From a virus, in the UHGV virus genome UHGV-0038496: a stretch of DNA of 64,000 nt; one strand, 5' to 3'. This document shows positions 5,217 through 32,808 of the stretch, in pieces. The position numbers were made by a program, and so were the translations under genes. The notes under the pieces are model-generated. The model made no database searches and was not told where the DNA came from. It saw only the letters and a list, made by a program, of their open reading frames with translations. Position 1 is the first letter of the stretch. Every line of letters begins with the position of its first letter.

Positions 5217-6021
5217 TTAAATCATCCTCTTATACATAGAGGGTGAAACAATCTTCGGAATAACACATGGCATCGCAACTTCCTCTTTTTCAAGGTAGTT
5301 GATTGCAGAAGCAATGGAGTCGGCCCAGTCATCTTTACGGCTAAAGGTTGACCGTTCGCCGTTGAATTTCTCCAGCTCTGTCAAAAATGCTTCCAGTGTA
5401 TCAGGGTCGAAACTTGACCTGACAAGCCGAACCATACCCTGTTGGGCAAGGTTGGCAAACGGTGAGAAACGGGTGAGTTTTGATTTGTTAGACGGCATTG
5501 GGTCTTCTTCCACCCTGAAACCTCCAGCAAGGAGTTTGCGGGATGAAGTAAGAAACTCACTCTTACCTGCCTGACCGGGGTCCACAGAGAAGACAATCAC
5601 ACAATCTTCACCATCAAACTCTGCCTGTTTCCTGATAATAACATCGCGTTCACCAGCTTTCTTGCAGAACTTACCGCTCAAGCCTGTGGAATACCTGCCA
5701 TCATCTACGTTTTCAGGACAATAGTCACCAGAGATGTAGTAGTAACCATCGCTATCCTTGCTGACTTTGATACTGGCTGTATAGTCGGGGAATTTGTTGC
5801 CAGAGGTACGTTCTGTACCAGCTTTATCCCACGCTCTTACAGAAACTGCTCCTAGGGGGACATGATCCGCATCTTTCAAGAATGTGCGACTGAAATAGTT
5901 TGCGCCTTCCGGTTTAGCGAACCAGTTACCATAGAGAAGTTGTGCTTTTTCCAGTTCTGGCAGACCTTCTAGGAATGCAAGATATTCTGGGTTATCACGC
6001 AAGCAGATAGGGTTATCGTGT
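5217..6021 (-). CDS. terL: terminase large subunit, exon 3 (C-terminal nuclease domain)
   Basis: Frame contains LLYGNWF-type terminase C-terminal motif; upstream boundary set where conserved intron 3' core ends (approximate). Confidence 0.55.
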
Positions 6022-7009
6022 CCTGGTGTTCAGGGCCGGACGCAACTCCGACCCCCGTTGGTTCCATCCACCGCATCCATGCTCGGCTGCATGTTACCAT
6101 GCAGAGCAGACTATATCACGATCCTGTTTCTCACAGGACCCTTCGCTTTTCGAGCACCATCAGCTTGTGCCCTACTCCCTTTCGGGATAGTCGTTGAACT
6201 ACAATTACCAATCATAATTGTTTGAAATGTAAGTATAAGTTTTCCTTTCCTTGATACTTTTCACTGTACGGTGAGAAACCCCCCACAATCTTGCCACCGC
6301 ACCAACGGATAAGCCTTTTTGTAAATCTTCGCAGATACCAATCACCTTGTGCTCACTTATTCTGTTAGCTGAAGGTATTTCCCTAAAGTGAAACTCCGCA
6401 GAGATATCTGGGTATACTGATCCATTCTTTATACCACTTACAAGGGTTTGATTGACACCGAACATCTGACAGATATCTTTTACCCTTGCACCTTGCTCTA
6501 ATAGCCTGCATATTTCAAGGGCAGTGGCATCATCCAAATACCTGTATTTATTTACATAATCTTTTTTAAGTCCAGTTTCATGGGCGTGGTGTGTGTTTTC
6601 CTCTGGGGTTGTCCACTCAAGGTTCCATGCGGCGTTATTCAACTTATTACCGTCCAAGTGATTTACTTGGGTTTTCACGCTAGGATTATCATTATCAACA
6701 AAAACCTCAGCAACAACTCTGTGAACAAGCACTTGGAACTTTTTGCCGTCCTCACACAGGGAAACCACAGCATAGCCTGTCTTTTTATGCGTAACAGGTT
6801 GAAGGAATTTATTAGAATACAAACTATAAATTCTGCCATCATATGTCACGCAATAGTGTGGGTAACCTAAAAATCCTAAATTCTTCATTTCAAACACTCC
6901 CTACTACAGTTTCGGAAGAATAATTATAGCTGCTGATTATCTGAAAGTCAATCAGATTTTCCAGCAATTAACGAAGTTATTCGACGTGCATTACTGCACG
7001 AAGCCACTA
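6022..7009 (-). mobile_element. group I intron A in terL (contains HNH homing endonuclease gene)
   Basis: Separates two in-frame terL fragments; RNA sense has AACGACUAUCCC and GAUAUAGUCUG (S-element-like) plus CUGCAUGG..ACAUGCAG hairpin; core near-identical to nrdD introns; 5' end approximate. Confidence 0.55.
6205..6897 (-). CDS. HNH homing endonuclease (intron-encoded)
   Basis: 230 aa; HRVVAEVFV...NHLDGNKLNN...NLEW HNH motif; lies inside terL intron A. Confidence 0.7.
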   Translation of the reverse strand: MFEMKNLGFLGYPHYCVTYDGRIYSLYSNKFLQPVTHKKTGYAVVSLCEDGKKFQVLVHRVVAEVFVDNDNPSVKTQVNHLDGNKLNNAAWNLEWTTPEENTHHAHETGLKKDYVNKYRYLDDATALEICRLLEQGARVKDICQMFGVNQTLVSGIKNGSVYPDISAEFHFREIPSANRISEHKVIGICEDLQKGLSVGAVARLWGVSHRTVKSIKERKTYTYISNNYDW

Positions 7010-7333
7010 CAGATTAATGGTTGCACCAATAAAGGCGATAGAGAGGGGTTTTGGAACTATCTCAACACCTTTACCGTTAACATACGTGTACTTCTCGATC
7101 AACTCTTCTGGCGTATCGCCGAAGATAAATTCCCCATCCCTACGGATGAAATAACGCTTAACGCCACACTTACTTTCATCGGGGTAGCCTTCGTCATCAA
7201 GCCACCAACGAACAAGTTTGGCTAAATAATGTTCAGAATCGGGGTTACAGCTGATCACCATTCGCGAAGAGTATTTTGATTTCGACCTCATACGGGAAAT
7301 CAGGTAGTCGATTTGCTCCCATTCGAACTGAGT
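7010..7333 (-). CDS. terL: terminase large subunit, exon 2 (boundaries approximate)
   Basis: Frame encodes ...MVISCNPDSEHY... terminase-like segment flanked by intron-like sequence on both sides; true splice donor probably within 7010-7080. Confidence 0.45.
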
Positions 7334-7966
7334 CGTTTGTGTTCAGGCAAGGTCGCTAATCTTGCCCCGCCACCATGTGGCAGCTGCATGTCTCCATGCA
7401 GACCAGACTATATCTTATAAGCGGTAACAACCGCCTATCCTCCCGTTTCGGCAGTCTTAAAAGACTGTGGGTTTCCCCAGCCGCTTGGCCCTAACGCCCG
7501 TAAGCGATAGTCGTTGAGCACACATCCTATCAGGATGCTTCGCTGCGGATTATCTAAATCAACACACTATTACCATACCTTCGGTCTTTCTCCAAAGCCA
7601 ATATTATGTTACCATAATAGATTGGTGGTGTCAATAGTAAAGATTTCCCCGCAATTAGGGAGGTTTTACGAGAGCTACCAACTAACCCTCGTCAAAGCAT
7701 ATTAAAGTATATTCCACTTTTGTCCCGCCGGATCGCTACTCCGACGCGGTGTGCTAAGACACCCGCCACATATTACCATGTGGAACAGACTATCTCTTCC
7801 ATCCTTGGCGTGCCGTTTGGATCACCAATCGCTTGTGATTCTACTCCCCTACACTCATCGGGGATAGTCGTTACACTCGGTTTCAATTAATCCTTTAACC
7901 GTAGCTCGGTATTGTCCTTTTGTCAAGGAGTTTCACCGAATTAGGCACGAAGGGCAGGTTTGTTTA
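7334..7966 (-). mobile_element. group I intron B in terL (ORF-less, duplicated core; possibly two tandem introns)
   Basis: Two copies of the AACGACUAUC(C/G)C ... (A/G)AUAUAGUCUG ... hairpin ... CCUGAACAC core in RNA sense; no credible ORF; boundaries by analogy with nrdD intron 2. Confidence 0.45.
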
Positions 7967-9079
7967 CCCTTGATGATTCAGCTTATCTTGGACGTATTCC
8001 ATGTGGCAGTACTTGATTACCGCACCATCCCTTTTCTTATTCCACTTACCTGTCTTTGCATCGTAATATGGAAAAGTAAACTTATGATCTTTCTCCCTAA
8101 ATTTTGGCCTCATATATTCAGGAAGATCCAGATACACACTTAGTGCTTTAGGCCACAGACCGCCTTCACCTTCCAGTTGTGGGGTTGTCCTACGGAACAT
8201 CACCACAGAGGTGTTTGGGTCATCTATCATCTTTAGTGGGAGAAGCTGCAAAAGAAAGGATTTACCACTGTTGCCTGTCACTGCAATGCAGTTTTCCAGT
8301 CTGGTGATAAAATAGCCTGTTGTGGTAGCAAAACAATATTTGTAACCATCTTCCGGCTCAAACTCTTCGAACGTTGCATCGTTATTAAGAGCAATCGTAC
8401 CTGCACGTTCGTTGGAGAACACAACTTTGTAACCCTTTTCGAAGAAGATCTGTGCATTGAATCCCAGAGATGATCCGAGGTATTGCAAGAAATCAGCCTG
8501 TTCTTTCGTTGGAACAACGTAGACATGCGAGTCATTACCGTTCAGGTAAATCTCATACCAGATCTGCAACAACTGGCGACGATCACAGTTATACCATTCA
8601 TCTGTGAATTTGTAATATCTTGCCTTTTCTTTCAGCTCTTCGTCAGAAATATCAAGGCCAGTACCACCCATGTTCACAAACGTGGTTTGCATACGCATTG
8701 CCAACTCATCGTTAGCATGTTGTTCGGCCACTTCACTGAAACAAAGTGTACCGTAATCTGTTCCGTCTTCTGGTACATACAGGACTGTGTGCTCGTCAGA
8801 CAATTCCTGACAAATACCATCCTGCACAACCCTGGTCAATTTATCGCATTCCAGCTTAACAAACTCTTCAGGCTGGATAAACATAGCCTTACCAGTTTCT
8901 TTATCAAACTGGAGGATATCTTGACCATCCCAGTCTGAGATTCTGATCCAACCGTTAGGTGTCATCACCTCATGTCGCATTGACAAACAACCCGCTGCCC
9001 CACCAATGATCAGGAAGTCGGCATCATTTTCCAGAATCATTTGTTGTTTACGGGAGCATGGGCCATACATTTTAGCCAT
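7967..9079 (-). CDS. terL: terminase large subunit, exon 1 (ATPase N-terminus, contains intein)
   Basis: N-terminus ...FLIIGGAAG then, after 240 aa insert, SGKSFLLQ: restored Walker A GGAAGSGKS; ATG at 9079 overlaps o-spanin stop. Confidence 0.6.
8270..8989 (-). mobile_element. intein inserted in terL Walker A (P-loop)
   Basis: 240 aa in-frame insert starting with Cys (CLSMRHEVMTPNGWIRISD, intein block-A-like) and ending ...IAVTGN before Ser+1; removal restores Walker A. Confidence 0.6.
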
Positions 9080-10206: not shown

Positions 10207-10282
10207 TGGCACCCCGTACAGGACTCGAACCTGTAACCTATGGCTTAGAAGGCCACTGTTCTTCCATTTGAACTAACGGGGC
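10207..10282 (-). tRNA. tRNA-Arg (anticodon TCT)
   Basis: 76 nt cloverleaf on minus strand: acceptor GCCCCGT/ACGGGGT (G1-U72), D stem GTTC/GAAC, anticodon stem GTGGC/GCCAT with loop CTTCTAA, T arm ACAGG-TTCGAGT-CCTGT, encoded CCA. Confidence 0.8.
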
Positions 10283-29439: not shown

Positions 29440-30452
29440 CGTGGCCTTACTGAGTGATCAGTATTGAATAACTCTGTTAACGCTAATTGCAAAGCGGTGT
29501 GCAGCGAAAAGCTGTGCTAACGGTTCAGAGGCAGGTGACTGCATTATGAGTAAGGGAGCCTAAACCCTTTGGACTAGGGGCAAGGTAATACCGTGCTAAG
29601 AATAGTGGCATCCTCTTAACTAGGAGGATGGTATGAATTTAGAATATGTTGATTGTGGGGATTACACAATCTATGAAGACGGTTATGTGGTTGACCATAT
29701 AGATGGCTATTGTGGTTGGGGGTACAGAAACGGTGGATACAGAGAAGCCTATGTTTACATAGGTGGAGAAAAGAGAAGAATGAAAGTTCACAGGTTAGTA
29801 GCTATGGCTTTTATTCCAAACCCTCTGAATTTGCCAGTTGTTAATCATCTGGATGGGAATAAGATGAACAACCACAGAGACAATCTTGAGTGGTGCACAC
29901 AAGGTCGTAACAATATACATGCAATTGAGACAGGATTAAGAAACGTCGCTGAATCGAACAGTAAGAGGTGGGATGACTCTGCATTCAGAGAAAGAACGGC
30001 TTCCAGAATAAGTGCGACACAAAAAGAACGCGGGACAACCGCTGGTAGGAATAATCCTCGTTTCAAGTATGAGATTGTTAAAGACGGAGATGTGTACACG
30101 GCTCCAGAGTTCTTCAATAAATTCAAAGATGTTTATGGTTTAAAACATTTGGAAAATCTGATAGGTAATTGTTGTGCATACCTCAAGCACAACTTGAAAA
30201 GAAAATTCTGGCTTAAAGTTGGAGCAGAGCCACGCTACGCCAAGAAAGAGTAAAACCTTCGGATGCCACTATTTATGTGTATCGACTATCCCGTAAGGGA
30301 GTAGGTGGGAGATGCTCCCCATCCAAAAGCAGAGGATCTCTAACTAGAGATCGTGATATAGTCATTGCCTACAGAAATGTAGGAGAATCAAGGATTTAGA
30401 TTACATAATTAGTCCATTAACGAACTGTTGTCTTGTAAATTATCCAGACATG
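29440..30452 (+). mobile_element. group I intron 1 in nrdD (HNH endonuclease-containing)
   Basis: Interrupts nrdD frame; contains ATCGACTATCCCGTAAGGGAGTAGG and GATATAGTC elements shared with terL introns; 3' end ...CAGACATG fits phase of exon 2. Confidence 0.5.
29633..30253 (+). CDS. HNH homing endonuclease (intron-encoded)
   Basis: HRLVAMAFIPNP...NHLDGNKMNN...NLEW; AGGAGG RBS. Confidence 0.65.
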   Translation: MNLEYVDCGDYTIYEDGYVVDHIDGYCGWGYRNGGYREAYVYIGGEKRRMKVHRLVAMAFIPNPLNLPVVNHLDGNKMNNHRDNLEWCTQGRNNIHAIETGLRNVAESNSKRWDDSAFRERTASRISATQKERGTTAGRNNPRFKYEIVKDGDVYTAPEFFNKFKDVYGLKHLENLIGNCCAYLKHNLKRKFWLKVGAEPRYAKKE

Positions 30453-31055
30453 CTGGAGCATGGATTTACAATAGGTAACGCAACCATAGGAACACCAAAT
30501 TCTATTAATGTAGCTGCAACAGTTCTTTCACAAATTTCAGCTGCTGTTTCTGGTGGGCAGTATGGTGGGCAGACGTACAGTCACATAGACCGCTACCTTG
30601 TCCCCTATGTAGAAAAAACACATAATAAAAACTTATCTTTCTGTAAAAAACACGGTTTGCCGGAAAGCGTTGCTGATGAAATGACAGAGAAAGATGTATA
30701 TGATAGTATGCAATGTTTTCTCTATCAAATCAACACCTTAACCAGCACCAACGGGCAAACTCCGTTTTTGACTATCAGTTTAGGTCTTGATACTTCTAAA
30801 TTTGGGAGGATGATCACTAAAAACTATCTTATGGTTCATAAAGGTGGCATTGGTGAAGACCATATAACCCCAGTATTCCCTAAAGTCTTGTTCTTCCTTG
30901 AAGAAGGGGTGAACATGAACCCAGGTGACCCAAATTACGATTTGAAACGCCTGGCTTTGGAATGCTCAGCAGAGCGAATTTACCCAGACTTCGTTTCTGT
31001 GCCTTTGAACAGAAAAGTGACAGGATCTACTGCTGGCGATGTTACAAGCATGGGT
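30453..31055 (+). CDS. nrdD: anaerobic ribonucleoside-triphosphate reductase, exon 2
   Basis: Frame continues reductase body; ends with U before splice donor. Confidence 0.55.
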
Positions 31056-31833
31056 AAACTACTATTGCTCATGTAAAACCTATCTAAACGGGGGAACTCT
31101 CTACGGAGAAAATCCCGTGCTAAACGTAACAGAACTCCCGGAGAAAAGGAGTCCTGAAATGAGAAAACAAATTCGTGATTTTGAAGGGTATGAAATTGAC
31201 GAGATGGGAAATGTTTATTGCACCCGCTACGAAAAGGAAAGAATCATCCATCCGTGGGAAGAAATAAACACAGGCTACCTTCTTGTCAGGATACGCAAGA
31301 ACAAGAAAACTGTTTGCCTGAGGGTTCACAGACTTGTTGCTGAAGCGTTTTTACCGAATCCAGACAATTTGCCCTATGTTAAGCATAAGGGTGACAACAA
31401 GAAAGATAACAGCGTATACAATCTTGAGTGGGGTGCTTGCCCAGATAATACCCAGGAAGGTTACGACAACAACTGTTATACTTTTTACACAAGGTGTCAC
31501 GGTGTGAAAGCTACCAACAAACTGACTGGTGAAGTTTTCCACTTTAAGAGTCTGAGATGCTGTGCTGATACTTTAGGGGTGGATAGAAAAAGAATATCTG
31601 CTATCCTGAAGCGTGGAGCACCTAATAACTATGATTACGAGTTCTGTTACGAAATGCCGAACGACTAACCGTGATGAATGTAGCGGTGTAGGGTGCAAGC
31701 CTATGGCACTCCAAAAGATAGGCACACGAAAGTGTGAAGATATAGTCTGATCTGCATGGTGACATGCAGCCGAGCATGGATGCGGTGGATGGAACCAACG
31801 GGGGTAGTGTTGCGAGCTACTCTGAACACAATG
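31056..31833 (+). mobile_element. group I intron 2 in nrdD (HNH endonuclease-containing)
   Basis: Exon 2 ends ...ATGGGT, intron ends ...CACAATG (omega-G), exon 3 begins TGT giving continuous ...SMG/CRSF...; AAGATATAGTCTG and CTGCATGG..ACATGCAG hairpin near 3' end. Confidence 0.6.
31159..31668 (+). CDS. HNH homing endonuclease (intron-encoded)
   Basis: Start at MRKQIRDFEGYEIDEMGNVY after AAAGGAG; VHRLVAEAFLPNP...NLEWG. Confidence 0.65.
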   Translation: MRKQIRDFEGYEIDEMGNVYCTRYEKERIIHPWEEINTGYLLVRIRKNKKTVCLRVHRLVAEAFLPNPDNLPYVKHKGDNKKDNSVYNLEWGACPDNTQEGYDNNCYTFYTRCHGVKATNKLTGEVFHFKSLRCCADTLGVDRKRISAILKRGAPNNYDYEFCYEMPND

Positions 31834-32808
31834 TGTAGAAGTTTCTTGAGTAAATACAACGATCCTGTAACAGGTGAAGAGAAATATCTCGGTCGTTTCA
31901 ACTTAGGTGTGGTAAGCCTGAACCTACCTATGATTGCAGCTCGTTCCAAAGCTGAACAGGTAGATTTCTTCAAACTGCTTGACGAGTATCTTGAACTGGC
32001 GTATGATGCTCATATGGTACGTGTGAACCGTTTGAAAGGCACAAAAGCTGGACAGAACCCGATCATGTGGTGTGAAGGTGTTCTGGCTCGTCTTGATCCT
32101 AATGAGGAGATTGACAAACTGTTCTACGATGGCTATGCTTCTATAAGCATCGGCTATATTGGTGTTTATGAAACATGCCAGATCCTTGGCAGAGAAGGCG
32201 ACAAAAACCTTGCTCTGGGTATCCTCCAGCACATGAAGGATAAATGTGTTGAGTTCAAAGAACGCAGCAGATTAGGTTTTAGCCTGTACGGCACACCAAG
32301 TGAAAATCTCTGCTATAAAGCGGCTACTTGCTTAGACAGGGCGTATCCTGGAGTTCTGGAGCACGAAAGGGAATATCTGACTAATTCGTTTCATCAGCCA
32401 GTCTGGATCAAGAGCAGTCCTTTCGACAAGTGGGACTATGAAACCGGATTCGCAGCGATCTCCAACGGAGGGTTCATAGGTTACGTTGAACTACCTAATT
32501 TACGTAACAATCTCGATGCTTTGGAAAAAATTGTTGATTACGGGTACACCCATTTGCCATATTTCGGCATCAACATGCCTGTTGACCAATGCTTCAAATG
32601 TGGCTTCCGTGGGGAATTTTCTGCCACTGCAAAAGGGTTCTGCTGCCCTGAGTGTGGTAACCATGACGAAAGTAGCATCAGTGTGATCCGAAGAGTATCA
32701 GGCTATCTGTCTGCACCTAATGCTCGCCCATTCAATCGAGGGAAACAATCGGAGGTGTTAGAAAGGGTTAAACATGTCGGCAACGTAGATTGTTGTAGTA
32801 TCTGTTAA
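31834..32808 (+). CDS. nrdD: anaerobic ribonucleoside-triphosphate reductase, exon 3 (C-terminal zinc ribbon)
   Basis: C-terminal CFKCG...CCPECG zinc ribbon as in class III reductases. Confidence 0.6.
   Translation, partial: CRSFLSKYNDPVTGEEKYLGRFNLGVVSLNLPMIAARSKAEQVDFFKLLDEYLELAYDAHMVRVNRLKGTKAGQNPIMWCEGVLARLDPNEEIDKLFYDGYASISIGYIGVYETCQILGREGDKNLALGILQHMKDKCVEFKERSRLGFSLYGTPSENLCYKAATCLDRAYPGVLEHEREYLTNSFHQPVWIKSSPFDKWDYETGFAAISNGGFIGYVELPNLRNNLDALEKIVDYGYTHLPYFGINMPVDQCFKCGFRGEFSATAKGFCCPECGNHDESSISVIRRVSGYLSAPNARPFNRGKQSEVLERVKHVGNVDCCSIC

Follow-up and report, generated by a model that had tools for sequence, protein, structure and literature searches.

How does a phage express its large terminase subunit (TerL) when two coding blocks of the gene are separated by a 633-base gap that carries the motifs of a group I intron core twice? 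This question is raised by the gap at 7334-7966 of the window, by which we mean the whole stretch of 64,000 nt that was analyzed. A sequence-only reading of the interval had left several arrangements side by side, namely a twintron, two introns placed back to back (possibly with a tiny exon between them), and a single intron in which the catalytic core is doubled. We conclude, with a probability of about 0.9 and on comparative evidence, that the interval consists of two separate ORF-less group I introns (A and B) in tandem, flanking an exon of 32 nt. Intron B ends at 7334 and exon 1 at 7966, which places the first intron base at 7965.

The TerL gene and its insertions

The TerL gene occupies the minus strand from 9079 to 5217. 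By its nucleotide matches, it belongs to a phage that is distantly related to Escherichia phage rV5 and of the Vequintavirinae type. Megablast searches with the TerL region and with a 24-kb stretch of the window gave about 77-80% identity to the best record, over part of the query only, and neither query found a close phage record in a collection of 50,697 phage records. Matches to phages that are free of intron B start at window positions 7333-7327 (megablast query positions 1768-1774). A tRNA gene (68.3 bits; 10210-10282, minus strand) lies upstream of the spanin-like and TerL genes, at a position that parallels the tRNA cluster upstream of TerL in rV5.

The features of the gene are listed below from its 5' end (^ marks a junction, here and throughout the text).

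7966-9079, minus strand: TerL exon 1, from Met to KLNHQG plus the first base (U) of a Leu codon, holding the intein-like insert; taken from the ORF list.
8270-8989, minus strand: intein-like insert in Walker A, 240 codons (IGGAAG^CLSMR...IAVTGN^SGKSF), delimited by its precise absence in rV5 and YP-6.
7717-7965, minus strand: intron A, a predicted ORF-less group I intron of 249 nt with P1, P3-P9.2, and P7.1/P7.2 hairpins.
7950-7955, minus strand: predicted internal guide sequence of intron A, GCCCUU, forming P1 with the end of exon 1, AAGGGU (7971-7966).
7685-7716, minus strand: mini-exon of 32 nt, (L)EYTLICFDEG, with Walker B; placed by frame and by collinearity with uninterrupted alleles.
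7334-7684, minus strand: intron B, a predicted ORF-less group I intron of 351 nt (Rfam RF00028, 80.3 bits).
7668-7675, minus strand: predicted internal guide sequence of intron B, GCUCUCGU, forming P1 with the 3'-terminal 8 nt of the mini-exon, ACGAGGGU (7692-7685).
7017-7333, minus strand: TerL exon 3, TQFEWEQIDYLISRMRS ... IGATI; placed by translation, its 3' boundary inferred from L005 and rV5.
6022-7016, minus strand: intron C, a third predicted group I intron, with an HNH_3 and HTH homing-endonuclease ORF (6897-6205).
5217-6021, minus strand: TerL exon 4, with the nuclease domain (Terminase_6C).

Core motifs and open reading frames of the interval

The interval had been described as carrying a series of four core motifs twice, about 330 nt apart. 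Most of this repetition holds. The motif AACGACTATC has three minus-strand matches in the 64 kb (7872-7863, 7515-7506, and 6195-6186) versus 0.06 expected, the third of which belongs to intron C; ATAGTCTG is found downstream of each interval copy (7793-7786 and 7411-7404), and a P9 hairpin follows each motif copy in the interval, so that these three elements are doubled far beyond chance. The fourth, however, is unduplicated: CCUGAACAC has a single copy in the interval (7347-7339), its other copy in the window (6034-6026) sits in intron C, and intron A ends in ...GGGACAAAAG in its place. The upstream J8/7-P7 motif reads GAGAUAGUCUG and thus deviates by one base from the consensus (A/G)AUAUAGUCUG noted before. 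The measured distance between the two interval copies is 357 nt instead of about 330 nt.

We found no minus-strand ORF of at least 40 aa in 7334-7965, in agreement with the earlier statement that the interval contains no credible ORF, and at this length introns A and B have no homing-endonuclease ORF on that strand. The only two ORFs of the interval, of 63 and 56 aa, are both antisense. A scan with the Rfam group I model RF00028 (gathering threshold 50 bits; intron A seen with relaxed reporting) returned the two separate cores that had been suspected. Intron B (7720-7384) scores 80.3 bits (E 8.4e-19), above the threshold, and intron A (8028-7766) scores 44.7 bits (E 3.8e-8 for the whole window), below it.

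Splice junctions and the mini-exon

The 5' exon of a group I intron ends in U, which forms a U-G wobble in P1, and the intron itself ends in G. We applied these rules to the junctions, with the last exon base taken as a U that wobbles with a G of the guide sequence and the last intron base as a G. Exon 1 ends in ...CAU CAA GGG U (7966), with the U opposite the G of the intron A guide sequence. Intron A ends in ...AAAAG and intron B in ...AACACAAACG (...AAACG), both with the terminal G, and exon 3 starts with ACU CAG UUC GAA UGG at 7333. The mini-exon between the two introns reads UG GAA UAU ACU UUA AUA UGC UUU GAC GAG GGU in RNA. The joined exons are in frame (...KLNHQG LEYTLICFDEG TQFEWEQIDYL...), and the predicted spliced TerL spans the peptide ...LNHQGLEYTLICFDEGTQFEWEQ.... 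Within it, LICFDE, with four hydrophobic residues followed by Asp-Glu, has what we take to be the Walker B form of ASCE ATPases. The predicted spliced protein without the intein-like insert is 515 aa long; its residues 24-294, which include both junctions, match Terminase_6N (E 1.4e-21), and it also matches Terminase_6C (Pfam); a PDB sequence search with TerL gave no match.

The junctions given here for A and B are the only ones that fit a U at position -1, a terminal G, and an open frame. Alternative 3' splice sites of intron A, after ...GUG or ...GUGG, lead to immediate stop codons, and alternative junctions of intron B either disrupt the frame or fail to supply the necessary U or G. A direct junction of exon 1 with exon 3 would cause a frameshift with a stop after 29 codons and delete Walker B, so the mini-exon must be retained. 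As the mini-exon has no start codon and is untranslatable alone, while it holds Walker B, both splicing reactions with inclusion of this exon would be required for a functional terminase.

In-frame stops are present at or just past the 5' splice sites, specifically GGG U^AA at intron A (7963-7966) and GGU^UAG at intron B (7682-7684), and another one is found near the 5' splice site of intron C (AU^U AAU CUG UAG; 7005-7016, minus strand). On unspliced RNA, translation would therefore stop at the intron boundary.

Occupancy of the two sites in related phages

The insertion sites of A and B show precise presence or absence of the intron, and all four combinations were found (alignments of three and five sequences, and the window clade). 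In the aligned TerL genes, neither intron is present in YP-6, L010, and L012, only B in rV5 and L013, only A in TH18, L004, and L017, and both in the window phage, L006, L007, and L005. All four states are also present inside the window clade, in which TerL is 93-96% identical (best-matching segment); there, intron B of L013 shows 92% identity and intron A of L004 and L017 97%.

The empty allele of YP-6 runs uninterrupted across both sites (CATCAAGGCCTTGAGTACACCATGGTTTGCTTCGATGAAGGCACGCAATTCGAATGG). TerL of rV5 continues uninterrupted past the A site (...KLNHQGLEYTMVCFDEG) up to an intron at the B site. In Escherichia phage TH18 (ON075799), the A site is occupied by an intron of 83% identity, followed by an uninterrupted ...FDEGTQF.... 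In both rV5 and YP-6, TerL is contiguous as ...KLNHQGLEYT.... Every uninterrupted allele aligns collinearly with the mRNA predicted after splicing. Comparison with the intron-free alleles therefore fixes all four junctions, for which simple phase rules had earlier yielded no unique solution, and the very short exon that had been considered around the tandem introns takes shape as a 32-nt exon that keeps the frame.

All intron-bearing alleles have a U at the junction (GGG U^UG at the A site; GAG GGU^AC at the B site), whereas empty alleles never do (GG(G/A/C) CUU and GA(G/A) GG(G/A/C) AC, respectively). A-bearing and A-free alleles also differ at nearby synonymous sites (UUG GAA UAU versus CUU GAG UAC). 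At both sites, a U at -1 and the accompanying synonymous flank changes go strictly with the presence of the intron, a pattern as would be expected from exon co-conversion or from selection for P1 pairing.

The metagenome contig L005, which belongs to the TH18 lineage, carries A and B with a 33-nt exon between them, so that the tandem state recurs in a second, diverged lineage. Both L004 and L005 were found in a metagenome collection with a shorter intron A core pattern; an exact-pattern scan of IMG/VR with a 26-mer of intron A gave no match. Among the 50,697 phage records, intron A homologues were found only in the TH18 group (four records), where they are unannotated. The identical TerL region, including the product of the exon 1 ORF, is present in ENA and Logan metagenome assemblies, of which L006 (a 140.7-kb contig) covers the whole TerL gene and L007 reaches only to a contig edge inside intron B. 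With at least two independent assemblies behind it, the arrangement does not stem from a faulty assembly in a single data set. When close relatives were compared segment by segment, the identities formed no clear mosaic that would point to a donor of intron B.

Structure of introns A and B

All copies of intron A score below 50 bits with RF00028 (44.7, 49.0, 34.1, and 33.9), and the intron B copy of L005 scores 67.9 bits. The Rfam alignment of intron A begins in exon 1, misplaces P1/P2, and leaves the P7.1/P7.2 insert unmodelled. The 'P1/P2' hairpin of the Rfam model, which uses the mini-exon (intron B) or the end of exon 1 (intron A), was replaced by a P1 with its U-G pair at the allele-fixed junctions. 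Likewise, an unconstrained RNAalifold fold of intron A, in which the region of the P3/P7 pseudoknot was mispaired, was discarded in favor of an explicit canonical structure that was written by hand (P1, P3, P4, P5, P6, P7, P7.1, P7.2, P8, P9, P9.1, and P9.2, with the P3/P7 pseudoknot).

The canonical structure of intron A comprises 66 pairs in 12 helices, with 99.2% of the cells paired over the window, L004, TH18, and L005, versus 33-48% in controls in which the partner was moved by 1-3 columns. Nine pairs, in P4, P5, P6, P7.1, and P9.2, are compensatory among these four copies, which represent only two diverged lineages and thereby limit the power of covariation; P3, P7, P7.2, and P8 are invariant and therefore uninformative in this respect. 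For intron B, RNAalifold found 22 compensatory pairs (window, L013, L005, and rV5) and recovered P1, P3, P4-P6, and P9-P9.2. In the window lineage, J8/7 of intron A reads GAGAUAGUC versus the usual GAUAUAGUC.

Introns A and B agree fully in their P7 strands and differ in P1, P3, P4-P6, and P8. Their global similarity is weak (z 4.2), and each of them reaches a z of about 8 against intron C. By these comparisons, A and B are members of one phage intron family (with P7.1/P7.2) and no product of a recent duplication. For the guide sequence of intron A (GCCCUU), pairing is about as strong with the end of exon 1, AAGGGU (-7.3 kcal/mol), as with the end of the mini-exon (-7.7 kcal/mol). The guide sequence of intron B gives -10.5 kcal/mol with its mini-exon target ACGAGGGU versus -3.8 kcal/mol with the end of exon 1, with which it forms only five pairs, so that exon inclusion is favored. 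We infer that A and B are removed by self-splicing.

Proposed splicing of the tandem introns and alternative readings

A group I ribozyme excises itself by two GTP-initiated transesterifications. A and B would each self-excise in this manner, leaving exon 1, the mini-exon, and exon 3 joined (...KLNHQG-LEYTLICFDEG-TQFEWEQ...), and the joined product would restore the Walker B motif of the packaging ATPase. Intron A would recognize its own 5' splice site by pairing GCCCUU with AAGGGU, and intron B by pairing GCUCUCGU with ACGAGGGU; the mini-exon would thereby serve A as 3' exon with its first bases and B as 5' exon with its last eight bases. As these bases do not overlap, neither reaction needs to wait for the other, and no fixed order is required. 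Independent splicing of A and B, probably co-transcriptional, is a plausible inference.

That the P7, J8/7, and P9 motifs are present twice, in A and B of the same intron family, could also mean that 7965-7334 is one long ORF-less intron with a duplicated catalytic core, a single pair of junctions, and no internal exon, as had been envisaged. This is almost certainly not the case: removal of the whole interval brings the frameshift with its stop after 29 codons and the loss of Walker B, the 32 nt that separate the cores can be aligned to uninterrupted TerL genes codon by codon, each of A and B is found alone in relatives, and their likeness stays at family level, with differences in P1, P3, P4-P6, and P8 and a global z of 4.2. 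Two close cores and no ORF are likewise what a nested twintron would present, in which one group I intron lies inside the other and has to be excised first to rebuild the outer ribozyme. However, A and B are each complete from P1 to the terminal G, neither interrupts the other, and conserved coding sequence of 32 nt separates them. Each occurs alone at the same site, with exact boundaries, in other phages, and the presence of A alone (L004, TH18) or B alone (rV5, L013) in complete phage genomes implies that they are spliced separately, so we regard the nested form as extremely improbable.

A further alternative accepts the tandem introns and adds substantial exon skipping, with the B ribozyme or an A/B hybrid using the end of exon 1 as 5' splice site; the resulting truncated or ATPase-dead TerL would be a by-product or a regulator, for which Twort orf142 and SIOphi TerL are precedents. 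AGGGU stands at the end of both 5' exons, the B guide sequence can form its five pairs with the end of exon 1 (-3.8 kcal/mol), A shares its P7 strands with B, and the 33-nt mini-exon of L005 means that skipping would be in frame there. Skipping has been documented for the 23-nt exon of Twort, the 34-nt exon of Coxiella, and the internal exon of SIOphi TerL (PMC10136302, PMC11878797). Nevertheless, we judge it quite unlikely to be substantial in the window, where it would cause a frameshift with a 29-codon out-of-frame tail, where the cognate P1 of B is much stronger (-10.5 versus -3.8 kcal/mol), and where the different P3 helices of A and B disfavor a hybrid ribozyme. Finally, the score below the Rfam threshold and the substitution in J8/7 would suit an intron A that is a decayed, non-splicing remnant, with TerL being a pseudogene or made as separate polypeptides. 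This is very unlikely, given that the 32-nt exon is untranslatable alone and yet bears the essential Walker B, that the helices of A have been kept by compensatory changes, that a second complete phage contig (L004, about 137 kb) retains the same copy, with the G in J8/7, at 97% identity, and that the window phage has been assembled repeatedly.

Mobility and insertion phase

The tandem layout would have arisen because two mobile introns target sites that are 32 nt apart and flank a catalytic motif. A and B may have spread by recombination or co-conversion with endonucleases acting in trans, for which the ORF-bearing intron B of other Vequintavirus phages, the HNH enzyme of intron C, and a co-infecting phage are candidate sources. 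In APECc02-type Vequintavirus phages, intron B contains an ORF of about 590 nt in P8, and in the window, intron C with its HNH_3 and HTH enzyme lies about 317-330 nt downstream of intron B.

The P8 region of intron B is variable, with the ORF of about 590 nt in the APECc02-type phages (L009, KR698074, 1216-2098) and a different, short P8 in L013 (4355-4698). A long P7.1/P7.2 extension of intron B is common to the window and L005 and absent in rV5. The GenBank product names near intron B are shifted or inconsistent between records, and related records give recombination endonuclease VII.

Intron A is found in phase 1 in the window, L004, and L017 (CAA GGG U^UG) and in phase 0 in TH18 and L005 (CAG GGU^UUG); the positions compared are 7966/7716 of the window versus 3511/3756 of L002, and L005. 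In both lineages, intron A directly follows AGGGU, and the spliced sequences differ by substitutions only. Intron B, 32 nt downstream of the A site, also follows AGGGU. The exons of the two TerL lineages with intron A share about 68% nucleotide identity. As a consequence of the one-nucleotide phase shift, the mini-exon is 32 nt long in the window and 33 nt in L005.

Endonuclease-mediated homing should keep the insertion phase. The shift of intron A possibly reflects intron sliding, slipped microhomology-mediated repair, or an independent insertion directed by the guide sequence. A broader and rather doubtful proposal is that the position of A is set by its own guide sequence and not by endonuclease homing, through ectopic reverse splicing or microhomology-slipped repair, with introns seeding adjacent sites. 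If guide-directed insertion were true, the block of intron A, mini-exon, and intron B might move as one composite element.

Other candidate mobile elements of the window

The intein-like insert has a Cys at position 1 and a C-terminal Asn followed by Ser, with Gly as the penultimate residue, and the insert-free homologues of rV5 and YP-6 read IGGAAGSGKSF. Searches with the insert gave no Pfam match and no PDB sequence match. The insert is present in all close relatives, in TH18, and in L005.

Intron C matches the Rfam model in two halves, both sub-threshold (28.6 and 21.9 bits). Its ORF (6205-6897, minus strand) contains HNH_3 and HTH_23 domains (Pfam). The intron is homologous to the HNH intron of rV5 and is absent in L005 and EI-SP-GF. 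The best reading of its junction is ...IGATI^HDNPICLRDNPEY; the junction ATINL^YNP was dropped for ATI^HDNP by comparison with L005 and rV5.

A gene similar to nrdD (anaerobic ribonucleotide reductase; about 30450-32808, plus strand) is apparently split by another intron. An ORF of 209 aa within this putative intron (31039-31668) has features of an HNH endonuclease by eye and is followed by a sub-threshold group I 3' core (34 bits; 31663-31769; Rfam). The P9 sequence of TerL intron C recurs in this 3' segment, and the same spurious peptide, MVTCSRAWMRWMEPTG, results from both.

Significance for annotation and experiment

By this annotation, one essential gene holds four predicted self-splicing elements, namely an intein-like insert and three group I introns. 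The insert lies in Walker A, and A and B lie around Walker B, which fits mobile elements that target invariant catalytic sequence. Gene callers split this TerL into four or five fragments, whereby the 32-nt exon is lost and the predicted protein has no Walker B, and GenBank records of the TH18 type show the same fragmentation. As TerL is a common marker for phylogeny and packaging type, this annotation error is carried into such analyses.

The near-identical phages in all four A/B states represent a natural experiment on how two ribozymes that are 32 nt apart fold and splice without skipping, and the spread of ORF-less introns can be followed in these phages as well. Since relatives infect E. 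coli, the system should be experimentally tractable.

Comparison with known systems

As summarized in PMC10136302, introns 2 and 3 of Twort orf142 flank an exon of 23 nt, the skipping of which was shown experimentally (Landthaler & Shub, 1999). In the terms of that summary, Twort orf142 and the window both have tandem group I introns around a mini-exon (32 nt here, 33 nt in L005). However, the two Twort introns are highly similar to each other whereas A and B of the window are only distantly alike, splicing in the window is read from sequence, and the Twort host gene encodes the tail tube whereas the gene of the window is TerL, with a mini-exon that encodes a catalytic motif. The same source describes two group I introns in the 23S rRNA gene of Coxiella burnetii that flank an exon of 34 nt. 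From that description, Coxiella resembles the window in that two group I introns unlike each other lie some 30 nt apart and have a guide of their own, and in that the short exon has to be kept; it differs in that the introns belong to subgroups IB2 and IA3 and reside in a bacterial rRNA gene instead of a protein-coding phage gene.

Phages of Gram-positive hosts offer further parallels. The ribonucleotide reductase gene of phiNIT1 has a small exon between two introns, TerL of SIOphi shows skipping of an internal exon, and exon skipping is documented for comparable natural and engineered tandem introns (PMC10136302, PMC11878797). Like the window, such phages have two or three group I introns in a gene for TerL or nucleotide metabolism; the internal exons are small, and skipping is a documented risk. 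Their TerL proteins are unrelated, however, and their introns mostly bear ORFs and are supported by cDNA, whereas the window is known from its sequence.

A further comparison is with rV5 itself, the terminase gene of which contains two introns and is divided into three segments (ORF64ABC; NC_011041) (Kropinski et al., 2013, PMC3606486). Introns B and C of the window correspond in position to these two and are their homologues, with nucleotide identities of 79.5% and 82%. rV5 has neither intron A nor the intein, so that it has no mini-exon and its exon 1 runs straight through ...NHQGLEYTMVCFDEG. The Escherichia phages vB_EcoM_TH18 (ON075799), 18-1-2, 19-1-2, and 24-2-1 share with the window the homologue of intron A (83%), the intein, and an HNH intron, but are devoid of intron B, and their split TerL is annotated as separate CDSs. 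In addition, their intron A lies one nucleotide upstream with respect to the frame (GGT^TTG versus GGG T^TG in the window).

Pairs of group I introns with a tiny exon between them are rare but already known from phage and bacterial genes. A literature search found no description of a tandem intron pair or a mini-exon in TerL of Vequintavirinae. Introns B and C of the window are thus already known in the form of their rV5 homologues, and the putative A-B pair in a Vequintavirinae TerL is newly described here.
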